From positions 62,096-126,095 of the forward strand of contig JAPLME010000010.1 of NCBI GenBank assembly GCA_026387175.1: a stretch of 64,000 nucleotides of DNA, read 5' to 3'. Positions 30,001 through 59,742 of this stretch are shown piece after piece. The stretch comes from Candidatus Omnitrophota bacterium (lineage in GTDB: Bacteria > Omnitrophota > Gorgyraeia > 2-01-FULL-45-10). Under the pieces are notes generated by a model that saw only the letters and a list, made by a program, of their open reading frames with translations, had not been told where the DNA came from and searched no databases. Position 1 is the first letter of the stretch, and the number at the start of each line of letters is the position of its first letter. Made by a program: the position numbers and the translations under genes.

Positions 30001-33000
30001 ATCGTCAGTAAGAAGGACAACATCTTATATAAAGACGCGAACCTGAAGTATTACGCGGATTCTATGTCCGCGGGAGTGCCGCTCGGGTTCCTCTCTTTTG
30101 AGATAGACGCCAAGAAGATGGAAGACCTGCGCGATCCTAGCCACAGTTTTAATGTCAACGCCCCGTCCGAGGATTTCGTCATTTATGTCGCGGCGAAGGT
30201 AAAAGTCGATGAAATAAACGGTAAGACAGAAGACGTCCTTGTAGCGGTGCATATTACCGAAGGTACAGAGGGGTGGAGAGATCCTTTAAACGAAGAGAAG
30301 ACAGACGAAGCGATAGGTGTGAAAAAGGTATACGACTATTATCTCTTAAACCATGTGAATAGCGATGGAGTCATTACCGACGCAAAGGATACCGGCCTCA
30401 GCATCTATGATTTTGATGCCAAAGAGAATGACAAAGATAACAATGAAGTGAAGCGCATAGCTCTCGCCAAGGAAAATGGGACCCTTGCCATAGACAGATG
30501 GTTCCGCATAGAAAGTATCAATCTCGAAACGATATGTGCCGGTAATATTCTTTCAGATAGCCACAACACACCATATGTCTTCGACCACGTTAAGTGGTTC
30601 TACATACGCGGCGGCAGTTATACGCTGCGCAACATGGTAGTTGCGGCGGATAAGTACAAATCAAATGCGGAGAAGATCTCTCTGGCGAGCTCTGACTGGC
30701 AGGTCTATGCCAGCAAAGCCACCATTATCAGTAATGATGATGCAAGCGGTTCTTCACCGGAGTCCCTCATACTCGATATCAGCACCGATTCGAGCCAGGA
30801 TACGTCAATCTCCCCCACTGACGCGGCCGGTAATACCCAGAACCTTAATTACACCGGCAAGAACTACCTGGTATTTGATTACAAAAATGACACAGAGGTT
30901 CTGGATACGCGCGACACCTTCTATATAGCCCTGTATGTTACAGGCAAGAATGGCAAGAATTACTCCCTCTATTACTATACTAATAAAATCGGTTCTCCGG
31001 TCTCAAAATATGAAACCATAAGCGGCGGATGGGCAAATTTCGGCATGGCTGAAGCATGCAAGAGCGATGTTGATTACCAGAATAAATTCAACACCGAATA
31101 TGTAGCCAAAACAGAAACAACTCCGGAAAAGGTGGGGGATGGTTTTACGACCGTTGTGAGAAATATCGATCAGGACCTGCTCGACCAGTTCGGCACCGGA
31201 CTGCAGAAGATAGGGTCGCTCTCTATGGTTACCAGGGGCGGCAAGTATCAGATCAGGAGCCTGAGATTTACCGCTTTAACCACTGCAAGTCCTACAGCGG
31301 ACTCTTGCGGCAACATTAAATACACTGACATACAGGGCAAAGAAACCAAGGTCCAGCGCGTGGCCCTTGATAAAAAACGGTGGAAAGCGACCAAGGGCGA
31401 TATATCGCTTGCGAGCGCCGGCAAGGTGACAACATCCCAGAAATGGGATATGAAGTACAATACGCAAGGCCAGCTCCTGTCTTATAAAGACAAATCTTCC
31501 AGTTCGACCGCGAAGATCATCTCTATGAATGGCGCTAAGGATGCCACTGTCTCTGTAACCGCCTCGCCATCAGAACCAGTATATCCATGGGGTGTCACAT
31601 CAGGAACAGCCGAGTTCACGCTGCTTATCGGAAATATGTATGACGACACCGAAAAGAATAATAATATTGTTATCTACTTCGGAGACTCTAAGGTTGGCTA
31701 TCAACTTACTATAAGGGCGACAGATGACCTGGGAGCCGACGCTTGGGCATGGCAGCTTGCCAAGACGGACGCGGAAGGAAACACTATGGGCCAGAGTGAA
31801 ACTAACAGTGGCCTGTGCGTTACCGGCAAGGAAGCGGATGGCTGCAAGCCGCTCAAAAAAGGCGGTTTCTATAAATTCAGAGTGGAGATATCGTCAGGCT
31901 ATGTCAGGTTTAAAGAGATATATACCAATACCGTAATAGAGCTGAAAGATCCCGATTCGCACTGGGACTGCGGCGCTCCGATCCTGAGGGTATCTGCCCG
32001 GAGCATGGACGCATCTATCGGCGCCATGTCATTTAAAGACTGGAGGACCGACGCTGACTATACTTATAACAATAACTCGCGCATCACGCCTTCCACCCCA
32101 TCGAATACGAGCGTAAGCATAACCGATCTGAGCAACCAGACCACCAAAGTCGATGCCATGTCGTACAATGAGAACGGGCTTATTCTTTCTCAGCGCGTTC
32201 GAGGCGTCGGCGCGAGCTCGCTCTACAAATTTACATATATAGATACTGATAAAGCCGCCATTATTGAGGTCAGTAACAGCACATCCTTTACTGTCCTGGA
32301 TGGGAATAATAATAAGATGTATTCCGACAGCTGGGCTGAGACGGGATCATCGGACACAGATCCGTCAAAACTGAAGAGGGACGCGGGCGCGGACAGCGTT
32401 AACTTCATGAGAGAGGTAAGCGGCTGGGACAAGAAACCGTCGTACATGGCCTATAACAATATCAAGTATGAGACGGTTAATGGGGAAGAGGGTGGGAAGG
32501 TAATAGGCATCGACTATATAGTCGACCATAAAGGGTACAGGTATGAGTTTGACAGCGAAGGGAGGCCGTCAGCGCTTTATGCAAAGGATACTTCTTTCCT
32601 TGCGGATAAAGTCGCCCACGTAACTTATTCATATGATCCCGACCTTGTCGTCAATATATACAGGGATAAATATGACGGCGATCACCATACCTCATTGCTT
32701 AAATTCAAGGCTCATTATGATGCGCACGGCACTCTGATAGCTCTCACGGGTACCGATGTCGGCGAGAACGAGAACTGTTATTCGGACTATAAAGCCGAAA
32801 TAGTTTATGATGAGGTGACCGGCGAGATCCTTACCGCCAACATTATGGAGCTCAGCACTACAGGCGATAATAAGACGGTCTTCAGCCAGTCGCAGGAGAT
32901 TTTCTATAACGGGACGCTTGTCTCGTTCACCGGGACCAGCTGGACGCTGGGTTCATCCCTTTCAAACACTGACGGCAATGTATCACTGGATACCCTTTCC

Positions 33001-36000
33001 AAATTCTTCTCCAGCCTACGTTTGAGTATCGGATCGGCGAATCAGAATGACGTTATGGCGCTTCTTACAAAGATCTCGAATAATATCAATGACGGTGATT
33101 CCAAAGCGCTTTTAGCTAAAATCGTTGGCGGAGCTGCGGCCAGTTCTATGATAGCGGCTCTCCAGGCATACGGCGGCCTGTTCGCAAGCCTTTTTGGAGC
33201 CGGTGATTTTACCGGAAAACTGGATGAATCGAAAGGTTATTTCGTATATGCCGGCAACATGCTTGTGGGCTCGGCGACCGACAAGACCTCGTATAACGTC
33301 ACTAAAGGGTCGTCTGCGGTCTCATCCGCCAGTTTCAGCCAGACGTTGATTACGAACGTTGACGAATATGGTAACGCTACCGGAAGCTCTACCGTGAGCG
33401 AAAAAGACGGTGTCATTACCAGTACCAAATGGAAGGGCGGCGATTACGATCAAAATGGCCATACCGGCTGGTATTCGACCGTCTCTTCACGCACGGATGG
33501 CACAACGACGATAACTTCAAAGAGCTCGGTAACTAACGCCAAGTATAACAACTACGGCCAGATAACGGGGTGGACCGACACCTCCTGGTCGTCTGCCACG
33601 CCCAACATAACCACGCTTACGATATATTCGAACGTCTCATACAACACTCTCGGCAAGATCGCAGGCTATACGCTTAATATCCATGATTTTGGCCAAGCGT
33701 ATGATTTTAGCCGCCTCCAGGTCTGGTCCAACATGACCTGGTCTGGCGATTTTATGACGAGCGCTACGTACACCAATATGCTGATAGACCCATCCGTTAC
33801 CGCGGGCTCCATCGAGACTATCAGTATCAACAGCCGTAAGGACGGCACAAATACGATCACCGACAGCGTATCTAACAAAAATGGCGTTCGGACTAATACG
33901 ACGAGCACCGCCAATGCCCTTGGCCTTACGATACACTCCACCAGCACCGTTTATGATGCCAATGTAAATGACCCGAGCAAGCGGACCTCGACAAACGAGA
34001 CTTATGAGATAAAATACAGCGCCTCGGGCAGTAAGATAAGCTCGCTTTCCGCGTCTGATGGCAATATTTCGCGTAGTTATTATAACGGCTACGGTAACAC
34101 ATACTATACCCATACCGACTACGCGGACGGCGGTAAATCCGATACCAGCTATTTGTATGGCAGTACCGGGCATCTCCTCTCCTCCAGCAGTTCTTATGTC
34201 AGCGCGCTACATACCGAGGACAAGGTTGAGAGTATAGACCAGGGCACGATGACATCGCATACCACGTACCGGATATACATTATCTCCGTTACGACCTACA
34301 ATGCCGCAGGCGATGCCGTTAATACCACCAGTGATTATCGTACAGAAGGCAGAACCGACATTGTTGCGATACAGGAAGGCGTTGAAGGGCACCACGATAG
34401 GCAAGACTATTGGCAGGGGCGTACTCATATCATTATAGATAACAATTATGATATCCACTGGAGTTCTACGACGCGTCAGGGAACGCAATGGACACAGACC
34501 CAGCGAACGGTAAGCGATGGCCATGGCAATGAGCTATCGAAGACGGAACTTAATACTGTGGAGAACTCTCTCTATAAGGATACCTCGACGTCCAGCTTCA
34601 TTACAGGGTATTACACGGTCTGGACGCAGACGGTCACCAGGAGCGGTAACGGTTGCAGCGGCTCCAGGCAGACGCAGACGACCTTTACCACATACATTCC
34701 GAATGCAACCGGAACAGGATTTGTAAAGGACGAGAGCAGATCATGGACACACACAACAATCGAGAAGACCGGATGGATGAACTCAGGCTGGTTCTCGATA
34801 CTCAAGATATTCGTCTCAGTCTTGGCGGCCATAAGCGGGCAGTGGTATCTGATCCTGGCAAGCGCCGCTCTCTCCGCTTTTCAGGGCATTGCGACGGGCA
34901 ACTGGATGGCGGTCGCGATGGCGATCGTGGGAGCCGTTGTAGCGATATATTTCCCCAACGGTATAGACTGGCTTCAGAATGGTAATCTCGGAATCAATGC
35001 AGTTTTTAACGGCCTCATCAGCCTGGGTATCGGAGCGGCCGCGTATTTAATCGGCTATCTCCTTAAAGATGTTTGCCCGGTGCTCGGCGCGTTATTACAA
35101 GGTGCAGGCCTTTCCATCGCGATGAGCGGCATCCAGCAGTTAGCGCGAGGTATTTGGGGTTCCTTTAATCAGACGCCAACTGGAAGTGCTGGTACTCAGA
35201 CCACTGAGAAACCGGACTTTTCATGGGCAAAAGTGTTCAGTCCGAGTAATGCCTCAAACATAGCATCAGCTGTAGTATCGGCCGGCGTGCAGATAATGGG
35301 GTTGGTAAGCGAGAGGAATAATTGGAGCCCATTCGTTAAATTCCTTGCATCTGTGGGAGGGGCCATTATTGGCGGCATCGTGGCGTGTGCCATAGGAAGT
35401 AATTTCATAAACGCTAGCCAATCAGTCCTTTCAAGTTTGGCCAATAGCTTCTTTAGCCTGGTTGGCACTTATGTCATACAGAAAATTTCTGAGAACATCG
35501 CGAAACGTTATACGGAGAAGAGAGAGGCGATAAATAAGAAGTATGATGTGCTGTTAGCCCGCCTGAAGAATGAATATAATGACGGTAAAGGCTCGATGTC
35601 ACAAGGGCAGTATGATTCGCAGAGCCAGGCCCTTGAAAATTCGCGCGGGCTGGAGCTGCAAGCCCTGGGAGACCAGCAAAATGTCGAAATGATGGGTATA
35701 AGCACCACTATAGGCGCGATCGGAGATATGTTTGCGGCAGTTATCGGGGCTATCGCCTCTAAGTATTTGATGCCGTTGATCGAGAATATATATGTAGCCG
35801 TTAAATATGACCGCAACCTGGATCAGGTAAATTTTCTACGGATAGCATTACCGAAGACATTCGAAGCTATGAAGACATCCGCGATGGCAGGAAAGCTCTT
35901 CCAGGGTAATATCGACCAATATATTCAGTTTGCTGCAAAGAATTATGGCGCAGATACGATTGAGAGCTGGGGCATTAATTTCGAGTCGTTGGGAGTAGGG

Positions 36001-39000
36001 CCGGCAGACCAGTATAAAGGCGAAGCGCTAAAACAGCAACAGTTGTCGGAAGGTAAGGGAGTCTGGGACGCTAAGGGCACAGGAATGGGCAACGCGCAAC
36101 TTAATGTACAGCAGATGAGCATGATAGACGCCATGATGTCTTTAGGATTATTTGGTGATTCAGCGAGTAATAGGGTTACCGCAGCGACATTCGGCAAGCT
36201 CACGGGTGACCAGACGATTAAAGATACGATAAGCGCGACACTTGGCGATAACGCTGTTGTGACCGATGTAAAGCTGACGACCGAGAACGGTAAGACCGTT
36301 ATAACATTTGCCGTGGACGCCAAGACCGTGACCGGCCAGGCAAAGAACCTTATGGAATCCGTCCTTAAGGCGGACTCTAACGCGAAGATCGAGGGACAGA
36401 TAGATATCCTTACCGGACAAGTCTCATTCGTGACAAAGATCGAGTCCGGCAGTATGGCGGTCCTCCTGGCTAACCTGGTCCAGAACAATGTCCTGAGCCA
36501 GGTGGCGGTCGCCAATATGACAGCTTCCGCGGAGCAAATGTGCAATGGAGATATATTTAGCGATGATGGCAAGCTCGACTTCAAGAAAGCCGCCGCAGGA
36601 GGCAGTGTCACCGTTAGACTTACCGCAAACGGCCAGGGCAGCTTCTCCTTTGATATGAACGCCAATAATCTGAACAACGAAATGAAGACTGTCGCCGGCG
36701 TTCTCGGTATTGTCGACTCTAATAATAACGTCAAAGTCGTTATCGATGCCGGATCCGGACAGATGTTCCTTGCGATGGGAAAATTGACTTCCACCCAGGC
36801 AGATAGCCTTATCGCGTTTGCCAATGATAACGGATGCAAGACATTCACCCAGCAGCTTGGCGGCCTGGGTGGCTGTGAAATCCTCGGTGGGCAGATAGGC
36901 CTGAACGCGGACGGCAACTTTGTCGGCAAGGTCCAGATCAATATTCGCGCCGGGTCGAGCACGGCCTCATTCTCACTGGGCAATGACGTGGCCGGCCTTA
37001 ACGATCTCGCGAGTATCTTTGGAAGCAATGTGCTCGCTACGATGACCGTTGAGGAAGGCGCCCAGCGGCCGACCCTTGACTCTCTGTCGTTCGGCGCGGC
37101 AAACCTTGACGATATCCTTCTCAAGCTTAACCAGATGCCGGATCTCCAGAAGGTCCTGGCCCCAGCTCTCACAAAACTCAAAGAGGCATCGGACCAGAAC
37201 CTTGTCAACCTGAACAATATAGTGGTGAAGACCGACTTTGGCATCGACAAGACGGGTGATGTGAGGGCGCTTGTCAGCTTCGTATTCAGCTCTATTACCA
37301 CGATAGACATTAAGAATATCCAGATCGCGTTCAAGGTCGATCTCTCGAAGGTCTCGATTGAGAATGGCCTGACTATAGCGACCCTGAACGGCAAGGACTT
37401 CTTCGTAGTTACCGCTGAGACCAAGGTCAATATGGCGGCCGCGCCGGTGAGTGAGATCGCGAGGGTTATCAATTCATACGCTGCCGTCCCGGAGACCGAG
37501 AGGCCTGCCGCTATGGATAAGATAAAAGAGTTAGTCGGGGAGGCCGTTGATACGAATGCGTTTTATGGAGACCGCGCTAGCGCCATAGGCGCCATTAAAG
37601 AACTGAGCGATGCCTCGAGCGCTATCCTGAACGGCCTTAAGAACGGTAATCTGACCATGCCTGAAAGATCAGAGATGGCGGATCTGCTTGAGGGCTGCCT
37701 CGATAAGGCGCGCGAACTGCTCGCATCCGACACGATCCCGTTCGATAAAGAGTTTGCGGGCCTCGCGCTAGGGATGCTGGTCAATGCCAATATCAATCTC
37801 GTCGCTCAAATAGGAAGATTCAGCAAAGATTTCGATCTCTTTGCCTGGGGCCAGATAGAAGCGTCTCTGGATGTGGTCATGAACCTTCTTTCCGTAGATA
37901 ACGTCAATAAGCTGCTGGCCGAGGGCGGCAAGGACTTCGTAATTGCCGCATTCAAGGCGCTTGGCGATATGGTCGTCAACCTTATTCAGAATTTTGCAAA
38001 TCTTGAGAAGAATGGTTTAGGCGAAAAGGCGATGAACAAGATAGCTGAGGCGTTTAACACCATAGAGGCATTCCTCACGATCGATAACGTCGTCTCTCTT
38101 CTCGACAAGGGTTTTGTGGATGTCCTTCGCGCCGCAGTCGAAACTCTGGTCAAAATGACCACAGCCCTTATAGCTAACTTTGGTAATATAAAGGATAAGG
38201 CCCTACAAGCGCAGGCCATGGGAATCATTAAAGGTGCGTTCAGTACGCTCTGTGACCAGAAGACAGGCATCCTGGCGATCGACAATGTCCTGAATATCCT
38301 TGATAAGCGGGATGGCGCTATGTTCCTCACTACAGCAGTTAATGCTCTGGGCAGCATGACCAAAGCGCTCATCGAGAACTTCTCGACATTTGCCAAGAAT
38401 GGTTTCGGCAAAGAAGCTATGGATATCATCACAACCTCGTTTAATACGCTCTGTGACCAGAAGATAGGAATTCTCGCCGTGGATAACGCGATGAAGATCC
38501 TGGCTAAGGTCGGCGGTGCGGTATTCCTTATCGCGGCTGTCAATAATCTCACGATGATGGCCGTAGCCATGATAGAGAACTTCGGTGTCTTCGCCAGTAA
38601 GGGTTTCGCGGCAGAAGCCATGAATGTGGTAGAGCTTGCTGTTACTACGGTCTCGAACCTTCTCCAGACGGATGTCATAACCGAAATGCTTAAGAAAGGC
38701 GGAGATTCGGTAAATGTCATTACCGCGGCACTCGCATCACTGACTACTATAACTGCCAAGCTCGCAGAGAACATAGCTAACTTTGGCGGTGAAAATAAGG
38801 AAGCGGCATTAAAGCTTGTACTGAAAGCGCTCGGCACATTGGTCAAGCTGGGGTCTTTTGAGGCCATCAATAATATTCTTGACTCAGCGAGGGCCGGCGG
38901 CGATGTCAAGAAGGGCGAAGCTGTGATAGCGACAGCCGCGGTAGATATCGCCTTACTGTCTAACGCGCTCTTGAATGGTAAAGGTATCGATGCCCTGACG

Positions 39001-42000
39001 ATGCTTAAAGAGAACCACTGTCTCGACGCGGTAGAAAATATGATGGAAGCGTCGATGAAATTCACCGATGACTCAAGTAAATGCCGTGTTGTCGCGGCGG
39101 CCTCATTAATGCTCGAGGGAGCCATCAATAACGTACAGTCGTTCGACAGGTCAAAGATCGAAGCGTTTGCCGCGACGTTCAAGGAGATATTAAAGAGCTA
39201 TATGCTGACCGTCGGCGGCGCCTCTGACACTGCGGTCAAAGAAGCGGACGCGTTCCTGAATGCCGTATTCGGGCCTACTATAGATCTGGACATACTCAAG
39301 AACGGCTTAGAGAAGATGAACAAAATCCTGACGCCGCTTCTCAAGACGACCACCGCTCTCGACATGATGATAGGCCAGTCTAATTATACGGTAGCCCTGA
39401 CTTACGCGCTTGGCGGCCGTGATGGAATGGAGCTTATGGTAACCGCCAGTTTAAGCGTGCTGCCGGCCGCTTTCCGTGACGCGAGAGGTATCATCGATAC
39501 CTTTAAGGTCGACCAGGTCTCAGACCTCCTTAAATTAAGCCCAGTCGATAAGTCGGCATTAAACGGCTCCCTCGCTGGGAAGGATATTGGGCCCGTAATC
39601 TTTACAACGACGAATGGCACCGATTTTACGCTGGGCGCGCTTACTCCTACCACTGGAGCGGCACCTGCAGCTACCGCCGCCGCTGTCGAAGCTGCTAAGG
39701 CATCCGCCATTTCAAAAGATAACGCCCCCGCCGCATTGGGCCTGTCCGAAAATCGTTTATCTGCGGATGCCAGCAGAGAACTGATGTCTTACGTTTCTGA
39801 TGGTATGAGGAAGGCCGCTGGTCTCACAGGCTCAGAGGATATTTACTTTGTTGCCCGTACATCGGGAGGTAAGACAGACTATGTTGCATATAAGGAGGGA
39901 GACAGTAACTCGCCCTTTACCCTATCGAGAAACGGGGAGGGTGTGTGGTATCTCTCTCATTACGGCGATAATTATTTCTATGGCGGCACATATAAGACCT
40001 CATCCGAGATCAAAGAGATCGGCGAGAAACGCGGGATGATAAATTGTTCCTTCGATCTGACCACCGGCACGCTAAGCGGCCAGCTTCTCAAAGACGGTGT
40101 TACGCATGATGTGAAGATGTTCCTGAGCGGATGGCTCATGGCAGTGGACGGGAAAGCGATAGAGACGATTTCCAACTACAAACTGAACGTCAAGAATGCC
40201 GCCGGTGATACCGTTTCAATGGCCGGCAAAATGGAAGTATGGGGCTATGATGCTAGTGACACTCCGTTTGGCAGGTTCAGCCCATCCGAAGCGATAACTA
40301 TACCATGGGTACAGGAGATACTGTCCAGCGCGAGAAGCGCGGCGGATGCAGTGAAGACGGCCTCAGGTTCTGGAATGCCGGCGCTTCCCCCAGAGCTTAA
40401 GAACATTGGCCTGACCGTAAGCACCGGCGCGGACGGTGTGAATTACATCGAGATGACATCCCAGAGCGCTCTCGTAGTGGTGGGTGGTCAGCTTATGCCG
40501 TTTGCCAACCCGCAGGATGTAGCCATTAAAGCCGGATATACGGAGAAGGACGCTTACGGCAAAACGATCATGGTTTATAGTACGGATGCGATTGTAACAG
40601 GTATCGATGCCCAGGGTAACAGAATGTACGCGTCGGAGTGCTTCTATGAAAAGGAAGTCGCCGGAACGATGGTGCAGTATGTGTACGTTAAGGACATGGT
40701 AGTGACGGAGACCGGCGAGAAGGTGACAGGAGAGTTCTGCCTTGCCGGACAAAGGATAACCCGGGACTGTGCATTCTTCGGCGTTCCAGGCACCTATAAA
40801 TTTAACTTTATATCAGGCAGTGATTTTGAATTTGAAATTAACGGAAGAACGGTGAAGGCCGGCGGCTTCGAACTCGATCACGCTGTCGGACAGAAGATAT
40901 CGATTCCGGGCGCGACTTTAGAAGTAGTCGAAAACGATAACGGTGTTAAGAATATCAAGGTCTATTATACAAATGCGATATCCGCCTCGACATCTACCAG
41001 GGTGGGAGAGCTTACTATCGGACCCCGATCGCTTATCTTCGATGCCGCGAGCCTCGCCGCGGGAGGCCCTAGGGTGATCGCGTACCTTGTTGACGATGTC
41101 GCGATACAGGGCTCGACGCTGCGCGAATGCGTGCTGAAGAATGGCGCCCAGTTGGCGATTGGCATGGACGGGTCCTTCGTAATACAGCAGGGCACGATCG
41201 TCTCGGGATGCGTGGAACGCTTAAATATTAATGGTATGCAGGTCGCCCCAGGCCAGCAGAAGGCCGGAGAGTCGGGCGGAGCCGCTCCAGAACCGGTCAG
41301 GCTCGGTCACGACGCGGAAGGTACGCACATTCTCTTCAAATCCATCTCGGTAGTAAACGGTGATTTCGCGCTTTCATTAGGGCAGGAGATGGTCATTGAC
41401 AGCAGCTTTACGTCCGCTCCCGCGGGTACCACATTCGCTCTCGGTAAAGCTATCCTCACCGCGACCGGTAATAACTGCATCCTTAGCGGCACAGACGGCG
41501 TTACGCAGTTCACTGGACAGCGCATTGATATAGTGAGGAATGATAATGGACAGATAGCATGGGGAATACCAGGCCTCGCGGATTATCTGGCCGGTAGCGA
41601 CGTGAAGATGAGGGATATCTATAAGATGACTCTTAGGGGGGAGTCTATCGGATATGTGGCGACGGTCGAGACGGAAGGGGGGACGGCAAGAGTCAGCTTT
41701 AAGAGTATAGATGAGCTTAGAGCGGCCGCAGCGAATTTCGTGGATAATATGGAGAGGCGCGAGGTCACCCTGACAGATATCCATAATACTCTTAACGGAG
41801 AGAGGAATATCCCCGTTTCGAAATCCGATCTCTTGAGCCTGATGTGGCGCTACAGCGCGGCGAAAGGCAATGCCTTCGACGACTTTATTGACAGGATTGA
41901 AAGCGGCGAGATGAACCGCGCTATCGTAGACGGTATTATCAATTCGGGTGCCGGTCTAGAGAATCCGATCAAATATTCCATCCTCGAAGCCCTTACCATA

Positions 42001-45000
42001 GCGGGAGGACTCGACAAGAAGGTCTTTAATGCTCTCAAAAACAGGATAGAGAGCGCCGACGTAACCACTCAAGATATAGACGGAATACAAAATGGCGCCG
42101 CAGCCATTAACAAGAAGTTATCTGAAAAAGATCAGATTAAGCTCACGGATAAGGAGATACACATCGCGCTGATAACGATGAATGATAAAGAGCTTGCGGA
42201 TATCAGGAATAATATAGGTAATCCGGACATAAACGCCAAGAATATAACCGACACGATCAAAATGATCGATGCTGCGGTAGGAGAAAAGTTCAGCAGTACC
42301 CAGGTCTTCATGATGCTGATGAGGATGAGCGAGACAAAGCTCGATAACTTCATATCGCACATAGGTGATGCGAGGATAAACGCCGAAAATGTAAATGCTT
42401 TGGTTGACAAAGCTCAATCCGCCGCAGGAGTTGATCTTTCTAAGATGCAGGCCTTCATGATGCTGATGACTCTGGACGATAAGAAGCTCGATAACTTCAT
42501 CGCGAACCTGGACAACAAAGCCATAAATAGCGGCAGTATAGGCCTTGTGGTAAAGATGAGCGGGATTATGGGCAAGGGGATATCCAGAGAACAGGCCTTC
42601 TTCATGCTGATGTCGATGAGCCCATCTGCGGTGGGGAGTTATCTCGCTGGGATGAGGGAAAAATATGAGTTCTTGACGAATAACCAGGAAAAGATACAAA
42701 ACTACCAGAAAGCTCTTACTGAAGTAACTGGCAAAAAAGCTACACTGGCCCAGGCAATGCAATACGCTATTAGGGCTGGAGAGAATCCGCGGGACACTGC
42801 ACTTTCAAAATACGGCACTTTAGAAATGATCGGCCAAAAACTTCTTGATCAAGATAAGCTTGAAACAGCCATAACTACGGCGCTTAGTTCCTCATTGATG
42901 TTGGATCCGACGGCCCAGCTTGTGGCTGCGCTGACGGATACCTTAAGCAAAGAGTTAAAATCTCCCGCGCTTGAGCCCGGAGTGGAAAAGGCGTTATATA
43001 CTCTTCGAGCAATGAGGCTAGATGAATATGCCCTTCAGGCAAACGAATCCAATAAGGCACAAACATTATTACCAGGTACGAGAGCGGATGCGGCGCTTCA
43101 GTGGTCGGCGGCTGACGGGAAGTCATTTAATCTTGGAGGAGATGATTTTGGAGCTTTGGTTGATTCGCTCAAATATGTCGGCCAGGTAATACAGCTTGAC
43201 GCCGTAGCATACAAATTCTCAGCAGAGATCCAAACATGCCTGGTGCAGAAATTCGGGACCGACATCAAAAATATTGTATCAGGGATCTCTATTGCTGCTG
43301 TGATGCGAAGTTCCGAGGTGTCTGATGAAAAGATCATCGCCGCGTTTTCCGACCAGGCAGTTCAGGCAGTGCTCTATGGTAGATCCGCCGAGATGAGCAT
43401 AGTGACGGATGCGACCGGTACTTACCTGAAAGCCGTGCTCGATTGTTCAGCGAAGCCGATTACGTCAATGGTGAACGGCAAAGAGCTCCTATTCTCGAGC
43501 ATGCTGAGCCCTGACGGGATGACTTCTACGCCATTCTTATCGTTGCGGCTCCTTGGGAACGGCAGCTGGCAGACGCTCAATAGCATGGCCGCCGTTACTA
43601 ATGAAGCGCTTAATTCGGCTGATAAATCGACAGGCATATATACCCTTAATAAAAATGCTGTTATCCGTCTCAATGCCGATGGTGGCATGAATATCGCGAA
43701 TGGCGTGCTTACCCTCGAAGGCAGCGCATATATAAATGCGTCTGTCGAAATGGGTGGTATTGCAGTGGCGAAAGGTCTCCCCGGTAAAGGCGGGGCTGGT
43801 GAAGTGCAGACGATCCATGTTACCGGTGATGGTATTCTATATAATGGCACTATCACTATTTCCGATGACAGGGCGGTGATAACCGAGAAACAGGTCTTTC
43901 TGTTAGACAGCGGCGCTTCCCTTACCGTTCATAATGGTGACATCACAAAAGAATATAAAGTCGATATCTGTATGGTCAATGGCGATTTGCAGCGTTTAGA
44001 CTGGGCGGTTCATGGTGTGACCGCTAAACAGGAGATAGCAAAATTCCTAAACAATCTCCTTGCTGGCGCTCTCGAGATAAGGATGGGCACAGATGCTATA
44101 CGTAGCGGCCTGGGAGATAATGCACCCATAGATTCAAAAGCCATTGAAGCTCTCGCAAAAGGAATCGCGAATAATGATATCGGATACAAGGAGGCATTGG
44201 AAAAGATTTCCGAATGGGGCAAGGTCTTCAAGGTAACGGAATTTGGTACTGCCGCCGATGGCTTCGCGGGTTTAGTCACGGATAGCGGCGCAAGCTACGA
44301 TCTTGTCAAAGAATTTAATGCCAGATGCGTCGATATATCGGCTATGTTCGGGGTAAAAAATGCGGAGACCCTAAGAACGGATATGAGAAAGATGCTTGTT
44401 GAAGGAATCGCTTTGGCGGAAAAAGCCGTGGCCGCAGAAAAGTATAAACCTCTCTCTACCGATGATTCTGAAAGATCCCTGACGACTTATCGAGGCGCTC
44501 TTGCAAGACTTGATAGTGGTGCGCCGTTATCAGAAGTGATGGATATAGTGCGCTATGTCTATCATTCTTCGCTATTCGGCGGAGTAAGCCGGGTAAGCGT
44601 CGAAGATGAGCTTGGTATCGCAAAAGTGGGTATGAGTACGGATGGAGTTCTCGATATGGCAAGGAGTTATGAAAGAGCTATGATCGGTGGTGACCTTGTT
44701 GGGGCTTTTGCCATCCTGTCGAGCGAAAAATACAATGCGGCAGTGCAGGCGGTAACGCTATTGGGTGATGAGATAGGTCAGGATACTGCGCGCCGTATCG
44801 CTTTCGGGGACGATAAGAGTGCCAAGATGCCCACGATAGATCAGCTTACGAATGCGATCATGTTAGGCGGAGAGAATGCCCTTCTCGCGAAAACAAAGGT
44901 GGAGGAGATAAGAAGTAATAATGAGCTCTGGGCAGAGTCGAGATCCACGTGGTGGTATCAGGCATCGAGCGCCCTGATGGGCAAGCAATATGAAAAAGCG

Positions 45001-48000
45001 GATAGCTGGGATATCGCGAAGGGTGCGGCGAAAGGAAGCCTGGCTATAATTGCTGCTACGACCATTTTGGTCCTTTCAGGCGGTACTGCTAGCGTTGCGC
45101 TTGGGACGTTTGGTAATTTCATGCTGGGTGCGGCTTATGTAGGCGCTGGGGCCATGGCACTGAACCTTGGCGCATATACTGCATACGGGATGATTACGGG
45201 GCGTGATCTTTATACAGGACAGCAGGCTTCAGCGTGGGGCGCGATCGGCGGAGCCATTGGTGGTCTTGGCGAGGGATTTGCATTTGCTCTCGCGTTCCAA
45301 GGCGCTGGTGCGCTTCTGGGCAATTTCAGCAAAATCGCATCAGCTGCTGAAACTGGATGGAAAGCATATGCTGTGCAGGGAGTTACCTCCGGCTTGATGG
45401 GTGGCGTTATTAACGTCGGAAGAGAATGGCTTACTAGTGGAAATGACTACTCAATATTCAGTAAGGAAGCGGCTCGAGACTTTGCCATAGGATTCGGGTT
45501 AGGCGCGATCGGTGGATACCTCGGAGCTTGGGGCGTTAATTTCGTGAACTTAGGAGGGGCTGCCCATACAACTATCCAGACGTTGGTTACAGTGGTTAGT
45601 ATGGGCATTGTAAGTGCCATAGGTGGTCTTATCAATAGAGCTTACTTCGGAAGCCAGGGCTGGAAGAGCGGCCTCGGTAACTGGAATACCTTATTAGATT
45701 TTGGCTTTGGGGCGAGTATCGCCGCTGGATTAAAGCTTGCCAGTGCAGGGCCAGCAGGCGCTTCAAGATTTATAAATTTTGCCGGAGTTAATGGCGGTTT
45801 CTGGGGAAGCATGAATGGCGCTATCGCAAGGACGCTTATGGTGACCACATCCTCGATTGCGATAAGCATTTTCCACTACCGTGACAAGATTTGGGTAGGT
45901 GAAGATAACGTTTTCAACTCCTCCAACTTCCTGCTTGCGGCAGCGAATGGCCTTATTACGGGCCTATTCATCTCATATATCTTAAGTCCGCGCGGCATTG
46001 GCCATTTGGCAGGCAAGGAAATCGGTGGTGTTAAAGATGGCGTGGCCCAGAAGATCATCAAAATTACAGATACTACCAGCGCAAATATCACGTGGTGGCC
46101 TGGAAAGACACTACCCATTAATTTCCCTGGTGCAGGTCTTCTTGCGGAAGGCATCAGAGGCGCCATGGTATTCACATTTATTAGTCCAATGTTCTATACC
46201 TTTAATACGCTTGTGTGGAATCCATTGATCAAGGGTGAAAAGACGGGCTGGAGTTGGGAGCAGTTTGCGGCAAGCATACCGCAAGGATGGATCTCAGGGT
46301 TCTATCTACAGCCTCTGATCAGTATATTTACCATAGAGCTTACCCGTCCCGAAGGCTTTGGGCAAGTCTTTACGCAGAGTGGTCTTATAGGCAAGGCGAT
46401 GGCGATAGGAGAATATGCGGTATCATGGATGAGGGGAAAGGCATTTGCTGCTACCGAAGATACTCTATGGATGAGAGGTATTGCTGCTCTGGGCGGGCGT
46501 GTAGGTGCCGGTATAGTCGCGCTTGATCAGTATGCGTGGATATCCGGTTTTGTCACGGGAATAGATGCCGCGCTGGATCTTGTATCGGGTCAACGACTCA
46601 ATCCTCTCACCGGCAAGCCTGAGTCCACGGGACACATCGGTTTCTCGCTAGCCTCCAGAGAGATTCTCTCGTGGGCCGCGCTATTTATACTGCCGATGGT
46701 TAAATATACGGTAGAGGCACAAATAAATATCGCTCTCAGGAGCCTTGACAGGAGCGTGAAGGTTTCTTCCGCAGAGAAGGCAGAGTTCTACAGCTTTGTT
46801 GCCGGTATACGGGAACTGCAGGGAAAGGAGCAGGTGAAAATATTAGAAAGCCTTGCTAAATACGGAGAGACAACTTTCAAGGATCATGCAGGCAGGTTTG
46901 TTTCATATTATCTTAAAGAAGGCATGACTCCTCTTGCTACGAACGAGCTCATAAGGATGGGATATGGTGAAAGGAATTTTGAATTCCTGAGAGATCTCTG
47001 TTTGAGTGACGTGACTAAGCCTGACCAGAATATCAAAATCGAAGGTGTTGACATTAGTATCGATAAGTATATGTCCGGGATAGGGGACTCCCTCTTTATA
47101 ACAGCTATCGCGAATTCTGGTATTAATCTGAGAGATCTATGTCTATCGATCGATCCAGGTAAGATGGAGACGCTTGGTACTGTATTGGACAGGATGCAAG
47201 ACGTGCCGGCTGTTTCCGAAGCCCTCAAGGACGTTACGCTGAGAATGGATGCCCAGATGGCATTAGCAAAACTTGCGGGCCTCGAGACCGCATTTGCGGT
47301 AAACGCGCAACGCAGAGAGGAATATGTAATTAAGTATAATGAAGCGGTGCGTGAGTCAGGGTTAAAGCTGAGCGATGGTGAATTTACCAATGAGCAATTT
47401 GATGGTAGAGCTGTTGAGCAGAACCTTAGGGAGAGAATAAAGTTTGCCCAAGATGCTCAGGCGCGAGGAGAGAAAGTTGATGGGGCTGAGCTTATGAAGA
47501 TGAAAGATCTCCTGACAAGGCTGGATGTTATGAGAGGAGAATATGAGAATATAACCTTCGTTGTCATTGGCAAGGAGAATATTGCCAATTTCAGAGAAAA
47601 GAATATGATCGTCGAAGAAGCGTCGAGCGGTAAAGGCAATATGGACTATATACTCCTCGAAGGCGCTATCGAGAATCTTATCAGATTCAATCAGGATGAT
47701 ATCATGAAGCCGCAGAAGGAAGAGACGGAGACGAATAGAGGCTTTGCTAAAAATTGGGAGAATTTCACTATTCTGATTAAGGACGGACTCAAGGGTGGTT
47801 GGGGTAAGATGATGGAATATTTCACGGAAAAGAAGTTTACCGAGGCTAATGTTATCGAGGTCTTTGGCGGCAAGTTGTCAGGTGATTTCATCGAGCAAAA
47901 AGGTAGAGAGCTTACTGGTGGGCAATTGGTGAATGGAAAAATCGTTGGCGGGAAATCAGATGCCGATGTTAATGGTAAGAATGCTATAAAAGGTGATGCT

Positions 48001-51000
48001 GCGCGCATTATCATGAAGGATGCCCTTGGAAGGCTTCAACAGCAGATGGAGATACTGAGAAGCGCAGGTGACACCAAGTCAGAAAACTATAAGGACCTTA
48101 ATTGCATGACTAGAACGCTCAAAGAGTGGATTGAGTGCAGTGAAATTATGGGCGATGGATTTGCCTTACAGCCATCTCAGTTGGCATATACCTATCTTAT
48201 GGCTCGTTCAAAATTAGCTCAGATGGAAGGGAAGAATATAGGCCTTCCGACGTTTGTAGCAAGGGTCGGTGCAGGAAAGATGGACGGAAATATCATTGGT
48301 TGTTTTATCGCTCTGGGCATGTATAAAGAGGCGACCGGTAAGGGCGCGAAGATGGTAATCATTGTCGATGCATCCAGGACGGATCTTGTTAGTCAGAATA
48401 TTACAGTTGCTGACAGCATGAAACTTGTCCTAAAACTCGCTGGCAGGGGAAGCTACGAAGATCTTGCAGTATATAAGGTGGCTTCCAATGAAGGCGCAGG
48501 CGGCAATGTGCTGGCGCATCAGGCGACCTTAGGTAAGGATACTGCCGGGAAAGATGTGGTAATTATTTCGGAGGATGGCATAACTGATAAGAGCAAGATT
48601 TCTGAACAGGCTATGTTTTTCGCGACGACAAGGGATATCCAGGAACAGATTGCGCGAAGTAGAGATGGCCAGTCAAGCCTCATGACCGAAGGTTTTCTCG
48701 ATAGTCTGCATATAGATGAGATCCAGAATACGATTGCGGCAAATGACCTCATTAAGAGCGCGGGACACGATCTCTATAAGAGGTTGCAGGTGCTTTCGCC
48801 TGACCTTGCGGCCAAAATAGAGTATCGTTCGAAACTCATTGACAGTATGGTCAGATATGTCGCAGGAGTTCTCGATGTAGAAGGTGACTCGTGGGACGCG
48901 GATGTATTGAGACAGGCAGGGCTTATTGAAAGTGTCAAGGGTGCCGCCAGAAGGACATTTACACTCAATGAGGCCTTGACCGGGAAATTAGAGAATATGG
49001 TAAAAAGTGACTCACTATTCAGCGCATATATTAATGAAAAAGGTGAGCTCAGTTCAAGTTTCCATGATTTTATCAGAGAAGTGGTGACATCCTGTCTCAT
49101 GAATGACAGAGAATATTATAAAGACGATATGCGGCAGGCTTATGTGATGACTGATGGGGATAGTGGAATGCCTATGCCTAATACAATATTCGGTGATAAT
49201 CTTAGGGCTGCCTGCGTGGCGGCTAAACATGGCTGGGGGATTGAAAAGATAGCGGATTCATTGTTACAGCACTCTTACATGAATGTTTCGACCGCTGATG
49301 TGATAAAGGCGTTTGGTGCATGGAATACCACGGGAGGCACTGGTACTGCTGAAGGCACAAGAAAGACTATAGAGAATATCAATGATAAAGCGCCAGGCCA
49401 TCTTGCCAAAGCCACCACAGAGACGCCGCTCATCAATAATTACCATTTACTGAGAAATGGTGAGGATGCGACTAGAAATGAAGGAGCTGTCCAGGTAGGT
49501 GAGAGCATTAAACGAGGTACCGATGCAATAGCTATTACAAGTGAATCGAGGAACGTTTGCTATGACATGTATGGCCGCGTGAAAGACGCGTACAAAAATA
49601 TGCCTGTCTATATTCTGATCAGAGGAGAGACAGATGGCGGTCTTACTTGCAGAATGGCGGATGGTAGTTATATGACGTTCAATGATGCCGTTAAAGATAT
49701 AAAGACCAGATTTAATGACGGCGAAAAGATGGTCGTTATTATTCAGGGTCTCTCGACAGGAAGTAACATATTCGGGCTGAGGGAAGGGGTCTCGAGAAAA
49801 GCGGACGTTATAAAACTTGGGCTTACCAGTTACGACAACCTGCGCCAGATAAGCGGTAGAATTAACGATGAAGGCGGAAAGCGTGCCCAAGGAGGGAATT
49901 TCATCCAGATAGTGAATATGTTTGACAGAGATATTAAGGATTCCGAAAAAGCGCTTTTGAGCGATCTCGCCGAAAGCAAGGACCCCGTTGACCAGGAATA
50001 CCTTAAGCTAGCCATTATAGCTATCCAGTCGGAAATTAACATGGAGATCGATGAGAGCAGGCTACAGCAGTTCATGGAGAAGTCTGGTAATTCGCGGGCA
50101 AATATAGCTGAGAAGATGGCTGATATCAGGAGGAGCTCGGAAGGAATGCTGACATTGCAGGATGTGGTATCGAAGAGCATACCGGTCACAGTGGCCGGTA
50201 TAGGAATGATCCAGGGCATATCTCCAAGCGGTAGTAATGCATTGACAAATATGATGGTCGATATGACAGAGTCGGGAGGTGTAGATCTGGTCTTCAGGAA
50301 CAGGAACATAAACGGCGCTTACGATGATATTGTCATCGATGCGGTAACCGGCAAGGTTGATTCGAATACGCGGCTTACTTATGATGGTGCGGTCTTTGTG
50401 AAGAACGTGATTGCCGCCAATAATCTCTTAAGTGCCGCCGCGGATGCCCGTCAAGCGATTGCATTTGCCCTAAAGGATGCGGGGGTAATGACAGATGGTA
50501 TTACGACAGCTTTGGGTAATTATATAGAAGTAGAAAAAGGCGGTTCCACTGGTGTTAATATAGATGCAACGTTAGGGCTTGTAAAGGAACTGCGTACAAA
50601 TGGAATCTATGACGGCATTATGCCCATCAGCGTTCTGATAAATAACCTGGTTGCAATCGGAAACTTCTGGGGCGGTATCAAAGCTATTTCTAACACAGGG
50701 CATACTATGACGAAGGATGAGATAACTTCGATGGTAAAATCTAGTGATATCAGGCAATCTTTTGTGGATTATTGTGGGCGGATCGGTATAGAGACAGTAT
50801 TGATTAATGTCCTTAAGAATAATATAAAGGCAGAGAGAAATTTGCGTTTTATTGAAGAAAATTTGGCGACCGCTATCAAAATTTACGGACCGCAATCGCG
50901 CGAGGTCAAGAGCTTGCAGACCCAGGTTGAAAAAGCCCAGAGTAGCCTTAACATGTACACGATCTCGGTCAGGGAGTTCTTAAAGAATCAGGATCAATAC

Positions 51001-54000
51001 GGTCTTTCGGCAATCAAGCTCTTCGTTAGCAATTCCATTACCGATGAGGAGATGAAGGTGCTTACGCAGATGGCCGAGAACCTTGAGGCGCGTAACCCCG
51101 GAATCATTGCTCAGGTCTCGATGATCGACCTCTACAATATGATGAAGTCGAACGGCACGGTCGAGTCTCTCGAGAAGTCTAAGGCGAAAGCTCCTGTGAT
51201 ACCGGAGCTTAATGCGCGTAAGTACGTAACAGTTATGCTTCCGAAGCTTGGATCGAAGACGTTCGCCATGAGCCTGGAAAGCGCCTATAACCTTATTACA
51301 GGTAAGAGTGTCGCGGGCATGGGCGTCACCGCGGTGATCAGTGTTGCAGTCGCAGGACTAGCGATCGGTGGAATAGTGATGCCCGCGATCATCATTATGA
51401 GCCTCAAAACTATTATTACCGCGGCGGCCGAAGCGGCTAATTACCATTATAGCCTAAAAGTTGCCGAGGGCGGCGCGATTATGATGAAGACCGCCGGCAT
51501 ATTCATCCGGGAAGTAATGCAAGGCGCTATATCAACGTCACTTTACGTATTGATGCTCGGATCAGGTTTCAACTCGCTCGGCGGCTTGGTGTTCGGTGGA
51601 TACAGCCTGGTGAGCGCGGCTCTCTCGTCCGTGAAACAGTCGCTCGGCGAACTTACTTCTTCGCCTATCATCAATGCGATCCTCAATACACTCTTTGTGA
51701 AAGAGCCGGTGGCAAAGACTGCAGTGACATCGAAGGCACAAAAAGCGTCGAATATTGTGCGTGACCTAAAGAAGGCAGATAAGCTTGATTGGAAGAATAT
51801 TATGGACAAGGCGGGCGTTGATAATGAACTTTTACTTCAGATAGTTATCCTTCTGGCGCCAGCGGCGGTTGCCAGGGATGTCGAACGCATGGCAGCTGTT
51901 GACAGTATTCTTCCGAACGCGGTAGACCAGGCACAGGATGTGAGGAATGGCATAAGCGTTTCCGCAGTACTTGCGTCGCTCGCAGCCTATGCTTCAGACC
52001 GAGATGCGGCAGCATCCCTTATCGTCCCATCCATCCTTAAAGGCATAAAATCGGTGAACGCCACGAGCATTCAGCAAGTTGCCGATACCTTAGTAATCGA
52101 CTTCGGTATTGATAAGGCTCAAGCAAAACTTATCGCATACCGGTCCCTCAATTCGAACTACAGTGAATCCGATATTTACAAAATTGAAAATGCCTGGAAA
52201 GGGAAATTTAAGTTCTACGCAGAGAAGACCGGTATACCCGAAGATGTATTCGCAAAGGCCTTTGGTACCGGTGATATGTCGATCGAGAAGATTGAAGCGT
52301 TTATCAGTATTCAGGGCTCTCTCTCCGGGGTTGCTCCGGAAAATATGGGCTTAAGCCGCTTTATGCAGCTTGCCGAAAGTAACGGTATACGAGGTCCTCC
52401 TGAGTTGATAAAACTTGCGATATTCCTTGGTATCCAGCTTCCATTAGAAGTAAAATCCGCAGTAGAGACGGGCAAGATGCTTTCCGCTGATGCCAGAAAT
52501 CTCACGCCGGTGCAAAACGCTATTAGTGCATTAAAACTGAAAGAGAAGTTCGCCGCCATAGAATCTCTGAAAAAGGCGTTCGATGAAGTTGATAAAGGCT
52601 GCGAAACGACGCTTGCCGAAAAGATCTCATTTAATAAAGCGATGGAGATTGCGTTATCGGATGATCCTGCCGCGGCATTTCGTAAGTACATATCTGACAA
52701 AACAGACGGTAACATTAATGATCTTATTAACGCGAGCCTCGCTATGGTCAGTCGAGGCGATATCACTGATCAGAATATAGGGCCGCTCGTTGATCTTGCC
52801 GCAGGTATGCAGGTAGCGGGCCCCATGTCCGCAGACCTTGTCAAAAAGCTTAATATGAATAAATTGGAACGGGATATAAATACCATAGCGTTCCTTGCAG
52901 ATCCTTTTAGGAAAGATATTCCGGTGTCGGCCTTCTCCTTGAGCGGGTATTTGGCCATTGTTTGTTACAACGATGCTAATAGGTGGCTGGATATGGCTAA
53001 AGATCTGTCGAGTCCAATCTTACCTGAAGATAGGAAAGCTTACGCCAAAGAGGCTCTGGTGACATTTGAAATTGCCAGGATAGTTTACGAAAAGCCTGCT
53101 CTTGGGCAGATAACCGAATCAGAAAAACAGATTCAAGATCTTGAGAAGATGGGCCAGAATAATCCCGAATACATCGAACACATAAAGAGCGCAATCGCGC
53201 GTTTACGCGATAGGATCAAGGAGCGCCGGACAGAGGCCGACTCTGGTGTTGAGTTTATATTGTCGCCCACGTTACAAGCGCGCTTGGTGGCTGATCAGCC
53301 GGCGCTGACGGATAGCATTGCAAAAGTGTTTCAAGCTAGGGATGGCAGGCTGTATATAGCCGACTTAGCCAGCATTGCCTTAGAAAGCGTTATTCCCGGA
53401 GCGATGGTAACTCCCGTTGTGATAAAAGGGTTATCAGAGGAGAAGCGGAAAGAATTTGAAAAAGCGTTTGTTGACGCAAGTTTAATATGGAATCCCGAAG
53501 TGGATACGGCGCAGCTTACCATCCGCAGAGATAATTATCTGGCGGCGCTCGAATGGGTTGATATTGCAAAGGATTATGCTAAAGAGAAAGACTTTAGCTC
53601 GGCGCTTGGTGCCCTGAACGAAGGGATCTTGCAGAGTCGCTCCGATGTGCTCGGGAATGACAGCGTAAGCGGCTTAACGAAAGAATGGACGATGCAGTCC
53701 TTGTTACAAGATAAAGAAAAGCGAATAGCGAGCGCTAAGGTATTGAGCGATATGGCCACAGAATTTGCGGGCATTGGCGATTACATCATGGCCGTAGAGG
53801 CGCTTGAACAGGCGGCGGCATTGGATGCCAGGATAGTCGCTAACGCTGATTGGCAGAAGATGGCCAAGGAACAGGATGCGAATAACTGGATAGCTATTGC
53901 TATTGAATATGCCTCTAGTGGCAAAGATAAGTATGCCAGGGCGGCCCTGAAAGAGGCGAAAGATATACTCGGAAGCCGTGCGGCTGAGGTTATTGTCGCG

Positions 54001-56244: not shown

Positions 56245-56269
56245 CGCCGTAGTTTGATTCGCGCATCTC

Positions 56270-56298
56270 TTGCAATACATGCCACCCTACGGTATAAT
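56270..56298 (+). promoter_or_regulatory. Sigma70-type promoter (TTGCAA, 17-nt spacer, TATAAT) for lgt; predicted start site falls on the lgt ATG, giving a leaderless mRNA
   Basis: TTGCAA at 56270-56275, a 17-nt spacer, then TATAAT at 56293-56298. The lgt ATG at 56305 lies about 7 nt downstream with no Shine-Dalgarno sequence. Confidence 0.5.
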
Positions 56299-56304
56299 TA
56301 CTCC

Positions 56305-59475: not shown

Positions 59476-59742
59476 ATGATGCGTAAAATATGGGCAATTT
59501 TATTAATGATCGCGGGTATGGCCGTTTCGGCGTTTTCGGTAGCCTTGATGAACGATTTTATCATGTTGGCCCGGCCCATCATCTTAATGGGCTCTAAGCT
59601 TCGGCCGAATAACACCGTTGTCGAAAGCGCCGTTGCGATGGCCCTTATAATGTTAATTTTTATGGTGGGCTTGGCGCTTATCGTCATAGCCGGTGTAAAT
59701 ATAATAAAATCATTTTATAAACAGGGAGGGAGACCTTCATGA
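59476..59742 (+). CDS. Small two-helix membrane protein (88 aa), translationally coupled between the two patatin genes
   Basis: A GGTGAGG Shine-Dalgarno sequence then ATGATG at 59476. Two hydrophobic helices (AILLMIAGMAVSAFSVAL, AMALIMLIFMVGLALIVIAGV). Its stop overlaps the ATG of the next gene (ATGA at 59739-59742). The ORF track extends the frame back to 59269, inside patatin 1, which is unlikely to be real. Confidence 0.55.
   Translation: MMRKIWAILLMIAGMAVSAFSVALMNDFIMLARPIILMGSKLRPNNTVVESAVAMALIMLIFMVGLALIVIAGVNIIKSFYKQGGRPS

Follow-up and report, generated by a model that had tools for sequence, protein, structure and literature searches.

The window examined here is a 64,000-nucleotide stretch of contig JAPLME010000010.1 (positions 62,096 to 126,095 of the forward strand) from a Candidatus Omnitrophota bacterium, assembly GCA_026387175.1, and it is dominated by one open reading frame (ORF) for a giant protein whose largest hydrophobic domain is the subject of this study. 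The four codons ahead of the ATG at nucleotide (nt) 13 (ATA GAA TCC ACT) hold no in-frame stop, so the gene probably extends upstream of the window and the 18,743 amino acids (aa) encoded within it are a minimum length; residue n of the protein lies at nt 13+3(n-1). Internal repeats are confined to aa 23-9991, none being found beyond aa 11259, and the N-terminal two thirds contain matches above the Pfam cut-off to RHS_repeat, Laminin_G_3 (94.6 bits against a cut-off of 27.6), F5_F8_type_C (30.3 against 28.2) and Dockerin_1 (30.1 against 22.9). EF-hand matches in the N-terminal part fall under the cut-off and no bacterial TSP3 repeat was seen in the Pfam domain scan of the giant protein. Beyond aa 10,000 neither Pfam nor NCBIfam gives a family above threshold and the PDB holds no sequence relative, and it is in this part of the protein that the hydrophobic clusters lie (Table 1).

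Hydrophobic segments were judged on two hydropathy scales, Kyte-Doolittle means over 19-mers with a threshold of 1.6, and the Hessa scale. Seventeen segments of the whole protein reach the Kyte-Doolittle threshold, one in the first 11,000 aa and sixteen after aa 11,032. They fall within aa 11596-11914, 15004-15325, 17098-17139 (nt 51304-51429) and 18220-18255 (nt 54670-54777), with single segments at aa 11032, 12825 and 12969. The first-pass annotation of this DNA had described four separated membrane-interacting clusters in the C-terminal third of the protein: clusters 1, 3 and 4 are all recovered in the non-repetitive C-terminal part, whereas the term 'third' holds relative to the window only, the ORF being open to nt 1. 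The distance from cluster 1 to cluster 2, put at about 3,100 aa, measures 3,089 aa. An origin of the clusters by internal duplication was considered and rejected, the four not being paralogous to each other.

The second cluster, hereafter the hydrophobic domain, is the extreme of the giant protein in composition, and its description as a real hydrophobic, glycine-rich cluster at 45019-46710 is upheld. When the whole protein is scanned in 564-aa windows, mean hydropathy and Gly content are highest, and charge lowest, at aa 14984-15010. The 500-aa bin from aa 15001 holds 17% Gly, 13.8% Ala, 10.4% charged residues and 23 GxxxG motifs, against seven or fewer in every other 500-aa bin, and Trp makes up 3.2% of the domain against 0.97% of the whole protein. 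Charged residues stay at 10.6-14% over about 570 residues, both here and in the homologue L070 introduced below, compared with 20-28% in the neighbouring regions, and the domain contains at least 12 consecutive uncharged stretches of 19-56 residues each. Conserved Trp residues adjoin the apolar segments. A hand count of Lys plus Arg over the first eight apolar segments gives 11 in one set of alternating loops against 3 in the other, two short loops being uncharged; this bias suggests helical hairpins with the N-terminal side of the domain in the cytoplasm, a count of loops having no power to resolve the later part of the domain. Sequence and profile searches of Pfam, NCBIfam, PHROGs, PADLOC and PDB found no relative of the domain.

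Four relatives are available in total, all metagenomic. Three of them, P0001 (on contig L067), P0002 (L069) and P0003 (L068), came from a complete HMMER search against 1.84 billion cluster representatives and are fragments on short contigs. The fourth, L070, was recovered with a profile of the window and P0001 and is a 14.3 kb JGI metagenome contig with a 4,078-codon ORF at 36-12269, open at the contig start. Word-indexed homology searches with the domain, with the last 3,177 aa and with a two-sequence profile of the downstream block returned no relatives, but were limited to 8,000 candidates, a cap that may have swamped them given that P0001 too was missed; a GTDB genome scan with the hydrophobic domain found none, and scans of viral contigs gave no matches or no usable pattern.

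The L070 ORF is collinear by BLAST with aa 14448-17238 of the window protein, and identity per 100 residues rises from about 20% in the flanks to 42-50% over aa 15130-15629, within and just beyond the hydrophobic domain. It rises again downstream to 43% at 16030-16129, 41-49% at 16230-16429 and 60% at 16530-16629, and stands at about 35% over aa 16930-17229, which takes in cluster 3 and the block preceding it. The hydrophobic segments of L070 match the positions of clusters 2 and 3, with one further segment downstream. P0003/L068 matches aa 13680-13829 and 14711-15127. By these identities the module, which the few known relatives retain as a unit, has two blocks that are conserved best, and the hydrophobic domain is one of them. 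Across the alignments of the domain the motifs RxWLTxGxxYS, GFGLGxxGG, FTxISPMFYTFNTLVWxPL, ASIPQGW, LDQYAWISGFV, TGHxGFS and PMVKYT are conserved, and the most conserved half (aa 15364-15566) contains FTFISPMFYTFNTLVWNPL, ASIPQGW, LDQYAWISGFV, TGHIGFS and PMVKYT. Such conserved polar and aromatic residues within apolar stretches would suit a specific fold better than a generic anchor.

The second conserved block begins about 470 residues downstream of the hydrophobic domain, across a weakly conserved, charged linker. Read by eye, its motifs follow in the order ARVGAGK(T/M/E), IIVDASRxDL (Ia-like), H(I/V)DEIQN and DSGMPMxNTIFGDNLRAAxVAAKxGWG, and then GGTG(T/G)A, QG(L/M)STGSNIF and GRINDxGGxRAQGGN; in the comparison with SecA, GGTGTA is followed by RINDEGGKRAQGG. 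The Walker-B-like H[IV]DEIQN is conserved in both sequences that reach that position, the window and L070, and GGTGTA follows it by about 200 aa, a spacing like that between Walker B and motif III in SecA, where the preprotein-binding insertion lies. The series looks like that of superfamily 2 (SF2) helicases, SecA above all, a by-eye resemblance that did not survive testing (see below). What is present is a conserved block bearing P-loop-like motifs, which may be a degenerate SecA-like domain and is offered as a lead and not as a result.

Table 1. Features of the giant gene and its C-terminal module. Percentages are amino acid identities to the relative named.
Feature	Position (nt)	Residues (aa)	Strand	Basis or comparison
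Giant ORF	1..56244		+	ATG at 13; at least 18,743 aa; single frame open back to nt 1
Hydrophobic cluster 1	34798..35754	11596-11914	+	Five Kyte-Doolittle segments at or above 1.6
Isolated strongly hydrophobic segment between clusters 1 and 2	38485..38577	12825-12855	+	Kyte-Doolittle 2.05; Hessa-scale sum 1.32
Soluble region before the domain, start of the module shared with L070	43354..45018	14448-15002	+	L070 21-39%
Gly/Ala/Trp-rich hydrophobic domain (cluster 2)	45019..46710	15003-15566	+	About 12-14 helix-length apolar segments; composition, hydropathy and L070 identity
TGRDLY motif, centre of sub-threshold Pre-toxin TG match	45196..45213		+	Pfam PT-TG
Most conserved half of the domain	46102..46710	15364-15566	+	P0001 52%; L070 45-50%
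Weakly conserved charged linker	46711..48129	15567-16039	+	L070 20-27% over most of it; P0001 40% overall
Second conserved block, candidate degenerate P-loop, SF2- or SecA-like	48130..50112	16040-16700	+	L070 peaks of 41-60%
Walker-A-like ARVGAGKM	48259..48282		+	ARVGAGKT in L070; ARVGAGKE in P0001
Walker-B-like HIDEIQN	48709..48729		+	HVDEIQN in L070; otherwise identical
GGTGTA, by eye like helicase motif III or SecA GMTGTA	49333..49350		+	GGTGGA in L070
Hydrophobic cluster 3	51304..51633	17098-17207	+	Two to three apolar segments; Kyte-Doolittle up to 2.48
Hydrophobic cluster 4	54670..54798	18220-18262	+	Kyte-Doolittle 2.31

Taken together, composition, hydropathy and conservation favour, with moderate confidence, the reading that the region is a conserved polytopic α-helical membrane domain within a giant surface protein of the 'Dockerin-type' known from Omnitrophota. 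Under this reading the repetitive N-terminal part of at least 11,000 residues, with its LamG, discoidin, dockerin/EF-hand and YD-repeat domains, would be the extracellular attachment part, and the non-repetitive C-terminal part would cross the cytoplasmic membrane of the producer several times. The 560-residue Gly/Ala/Trp-rich bundle would be the largest and best conserved of its membrane elements. It belongs to a single module (soluble region, membrane domain, linker, block with P-loop-like motifs, cluster-3 helices) whose parts occur together in relatives, and would anchor the protein in the cell's own membrane while positioning the adjacent, probably cytoplasmic, block. It may also aid the export or the holding of the giant extracellular part. 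By its alignments the largest cluster is not a generic anchor but a conserved, unannotated and rare domain family tied to the second conserved block. Clusters of membrane helices in giant Omnitrophota proteins were already known; what is new here is a C-terminal module without a detectable known domain.

Several observations weigh against this reading. First, most of the apolar segments are only marginally hydrophobic: of the 12-14 or so in the domain just three reach a Kyte-Doolittle value of 1.6, the others lying between 1.1 and 1.5, while the segments of L070 lie at 1.05-1.5 and several of them carry charges. Second, AlphaFold2 (run for both conserved blocks on alignments of the window and P0001-P0003, at a depth of 2-4) returned a mostly helical secondary structure for the membrane domain at low confidence, with a predicted local distance difference test score (pLDDT) of 38.2, which establishes no fold. 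Third, all of the relatives are fragments and the full architecture is seen only in the window, where neither a signal peptide nor the N-terminus is visible, the outside location of the N-terminal part thus being read from domain types only. Finally, the SecA-like reading of the downstream block failed in every statistical test. The Ser/Thr of the Walker-A-like motif is kept in one of three homologues (L070), being Met in the window and Glu in P0001; no Pfam SecA family was matched by the window (E up to 5) or by L070 (E up to 1); and hhalign and hmmsearch --max against E. coli SecA (L071) found no match.

The first two of these points would be expected if the domain did not span a membrane at all and were instead a Gly/Ala-rich, tightly packed helical domain, soluble or peripherally associated with the membrane, in which the small residues permit close packing. 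The first-pass annotation had described many consecutive apolar, GxxxG-rich helices, and the enrichment is confirmed in the window. There is more Gly at i,i+4 than in composition-matched shuffles (z=3.0, with i,i+7 weaker at z=1.5), but only the three segments already mentioned pass 1.6, and in L070 the spacing is absent (i,i+4 z=-0.5, i,i+7 z=-0.2) at an equal Gly content of 15.5%. Since the i,i+4 excess is absent in L070, Gly richness, rather than its spacing, appears to be the conserved property, though some Gly clusters such as GFGLGxxGG are kept. Likewise the peptide put forward as an example, AWGAIGGAIGGLGEGFAFALAFQGAGALLG, is present in the domain but has an internal Glu, and in L070 its counterpart is interrupted by the charged residues D, R, R, K, R and E; this particular segment is therefore not a conserved membrane helix. 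In favour of membrane helices, the Hessa-scale sum falls below 2 in two segments of the domain. A soluble or peripheral domain is nevertheless considered unlikely for four reasons: the depletion of charge is maintained over some 570 residues in both sequences while the neighbouring regions are more highly charged; the uncharged stretches are long and consecutive; Trp is enriched, and the conserved Trp residues stand beside apolar segments; and positive charge is biased towards alternate loops.

A second alternative accepts that the helices enter a membrane and differs as to whose. The domain might be soluble or shielded in the producer and insert into the membrane of a prey or host, there forming a pore or translocating cargo. 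The first-pass annotation had drawn such an analogy with large clostridial toxins and MARTX toxins, and it was correct that the layout, with several separated hydrophobic clusters, differs from that of ordinary repeat adhesins. The marginal hydrophobicity of many helices is reminiscent of inserting toxins, the i,i+4 enrichment of Gly and the N-terminal RHS/YD repeats point the same way, two lipoprotein-type patatin-like phospholipases are encoded just downstream, and Omnitrophota have been described as predatory or epibiotic. There is also a weak match to Pre-toxin TG (PF14449) at E 0.006, the sole family hit within the domain, which covers 25 residues (profile positions 16-40 of 68) and scores 17.0 bits against a cut-off of 23.5. 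Against this, the central TGRDLY motif of that match is common to the window and P0003/L068 and absent in L070, the GxxxG periodicity is missing from L070, and the toxin analogy lacks support from homology, no toxin translocation or RTX family being found in Pfam, NCBIfam or PDB even at relaxed thresholds. Moreover, the domain is flanked by conserved blocks that are not toxin-like and ends some 3,200 aa short of the C-terminus, rather than standing ahead of a variable C-terminal toxin, and is among the slowest-evolving parts of the module. Delivery into a foreign membrane therefore appears improbable, and a membrane domain in the producer's own cell is preferred.

The likeness to TcdA/TcdB and MARTX is one of layout only, in that internal apolar Gly-rich helices are flanked by large soluble regions. 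Neither their pore region nor an RtxA repeat family is matched in the window by Pfam (E up to 5), NCBIfam (E up to 1) or PDB, no glucosyltransferase, cysteine-protease or effector domain was found by sequence across aa 10,000-18,743, the clusters are several and separate instead of one, and the domain is conserved alongside a putative cytoplasmic block. Glycine zippers, (G/A/S)xxxGxxxG, occur in VacA, MscL and pore-forming effectors of type VI and type VII secretion systems. The domain resembles them in its Gly/Ala-rich apolar helices, its i,i+4 excess and the conserved GFGLGxxGG, and differs from them in that the excess is absent from L070 and in being far larger than the known zipper pore formers. 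With the Pre-toxin TG polymorphic toxins it shares the TGRDLY match, and no C-terminal toxin or adjacent immunity gene was recognised in the window.

The nature of the second block bears on how far the favoured reading can be extended. The region at 46.7-51.3 kb had been proposed to hold delivered cargo or cytoplasmic domains, and the latter fits better, given the conserved block with Walker-A- and Walker-B-like motifs found there by inspection. A search for enzyme folds between the clusters had also been suggested; structure prediction and Foldseek on this block confirmed none (pLDDT about 38). The individual AlphaFold2 model of the block has a pLDDT of 37.8, at which Foldseek is uninformative, and in this low-confidence model the Walker-A-like site would fall between a strand and a helix. 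Searches of NCBIfam, PADLOC and PDB profiles gave no relevant match for the block and tblastn for SecA was negative or marginal. In Smith-Waterman comparisons with shuffles against E. coli SecA the window reached z=2.9, with the alignment running from Walker B to motif III, and L070 reached z=0.4. Relative to the SecA motor, then, the order of motifs is similar by eye and is accompanied by neither profile support, a conserved Walker-A Ser/Thr nor a confident structure.

The strongest form of the membrane reading would be a dedicated self-export machine, with the membrane domain as conduit and with the extracellular part of the protein driven through it by the downstream block as an active SecA-type motor, and although the collinear SecA/SF2 motif series with its spacing of about 200 aa from the Walker-B-like motif to GGTGTA, the Smith-Waterman alignment of exactly the motif-bearing stretch and the SecA_DEAD domains that follow transmembrane anchors in published giants would all fit such a machine, it is decidedly improbable in view of the absence of Pfam SecA_DEAD at E up to 5, the negative PDB profile, hhalign and hmmsearch --max searches, the Smith-Waterman value of L070, the replacement of the Walker-A Thr by Met or Glu and the uninformative Foldseek result. 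In a looser form, which is speculative and also rather unlikely, the membrane domain, a degenerate SF2/SecA-like block and the cluster-3 helices may together be an undescribed, self-contained membrane machine that inserts, exports or holds the protein's own extracellular part of at least 11,000 residues, and the membrane domain would then represent a new fold family for conducting or anchoring proteins, with no sequence relationship to SecY, YidC and the ABC exporters.

The closest known counterparts of the window protein are the Dockerin-type Omnitrophota giants, which have transmembrane (TM) and intracellular regions near the C-terminus (West-Roberts et al. 2023, 10.1101/2023.11.21.568195). 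With these giants, and with the Archaeovorins, it shares the phylum and a length of more than 10,000 aa. Like the Dockerin-type giants it has N-terminal repeats with dockerin/EF-hand, discoidin and concanavalin-like lectin domains, is free of hydrophobic segments on the hydropathy scale over most of its N-terminal part with its clusters C-terminal, and has a sub-threshold match to a C39 peptidase. The density of TM segments is similar too: Omnitrophota proteins of at least 10,000 aa have a mean of 22 TM helices, about 2% of residues (10.1101/2023.11.21.568195; 10.64898/2026.06.07.730766), and the 17 strong segments of the window protein, at about 20 residues each, amount to 1.8%. There are three differences. 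Published giants have SecA_DEAD or SecA preprotein-binding domains after their TM anchors (West-Roberts et al. 2023, 10.1101/2023.11.21.568195), and in the window protein a SecA_DEAD domain is undetectable by any profile method; its C-terminal 7,700 aa are without a Pfam domain above threshold; and its hydrophobic domain is an unannotated family with four known relatives.

Outside the two best conserved blocks the module and its surroundings are more variable. Cluster 3 is kept in the L070 protein (L070p) at residues 2852-2893 and beyond, with about 36% identity. L070p has a late hydrophobic segment at 3508-3560, and no similarity to the window protein is detectable after aa 17240. No counterpart of cluster 1 was seen in the part of L068 examined. 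The L068 locus (GCA_028699255.1; 1-6366 and 6368-12367) encodes YD-type repeats that resemble aa 600-2000 of the window protein. In L068 just 1,850 residues or so, with a long low-complexity stretch rich in acidic residues, separate these repeats from the hydrophobic domain that follows; between the repeats and the module the frame changes and the scaffold has a gap (a run of N). It follows from this arrangement that the middle of the window protein, some 11,000 aa, is not needed to link both ends. Gene fission, with L070 a stand-alone protein of 4,078 aa and L068 three genes, was considered and dropped, the L070 frame being open to the contig start, and three separate genes in L068 were likewise dropped given the run of N and the overlapping open frames. 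On the short JGI contig that carries P0002 (L069, 697-966) open frames overlap at 697-757, so the apparent stop that follows the homologous region probably reflects a frameshift in a low-coverage assembly and not a true protein end.

Some features of the N-terminal part merit record in their own right. The first residues of the ORF (window 1-60) are YD-repeat-like, without a signal peptide, and the YD repeats of aa 548-1948 number up to seven copies, with no Rhs core or C-terminal toxin arrangement seen. At aa 405-488 is the Peptidase_C39 match, which stays below threshold (18.3 bits where the cut-off is 22; E 0.002), and just before it, within window 1072-1476 (aa 354-488), is an apolar NCAAAALTYIL that could supply the catalytic Cys; other Omnitrophota giants have been reported to contain C39 domains, and this candidate might process the giant protein. 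Amid the lectin and dockerin domains are the RHS_repeat match above cut-off, at window 6397-6504 (aa 2129-2164), and a weak match to the phage-tail-like DUF2460 at 10867-11127 (aa 3619-3705). The GC skew of the coding strand is about 0.02 over the first 34 kb, but between about 40 kb and the stop codon it stands at 0.10-0.23; the rise coincides with the non-repetitive, module-bearing C-terminal part and could represent amino acid usage or a different evolutionary origin, for example a fusion.

Downstream of the giant gene lie a gene for Lgt (56254-57081) and one for an Ala/Pro-rich secreted protein (57078-57725), followed directly by two tandem patatin-like phospholipase genes (58230-59465 and 59739-60956). 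The two phospholipases are 52% identical to each other and both carry a lipoprotein-type signal peptide (LSGC and ISGC). A NuoL/Mrp-like gene at 61690-63513 is 68-80% identical to genes of about 30 Candidatus Omnitrophota metagenome-assembled genomes and at most 46% identical to those of other phyla, which places the source in the Omnitrophota. Its relatives have neither the giant gene nor the patatin genes upstream, and the giant gene and the patatin genes may form a lineage-specific membrane-attack neighbourhood.

The production, export and anchoring of proteins tens of thousands of residues long by bacteria with tiny genomes is a standing question, and published work on the Omnitrophota giants leaves their non-repetitive regions largely unannotated. 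In the few known relatives the membrane domain (aa 15003-15566) and the second block (aa 16030-16700) of the window protein are conserved together while their surroundings drift, and this joint conservation singles out the pair as the functional core of the protein's C-terminal part. Should the domain serve solely as an anchor, a new domain family would at least have been usefully annotated; should it be coupled to a motor, it would have a bearing on the export of giant surface proteins.

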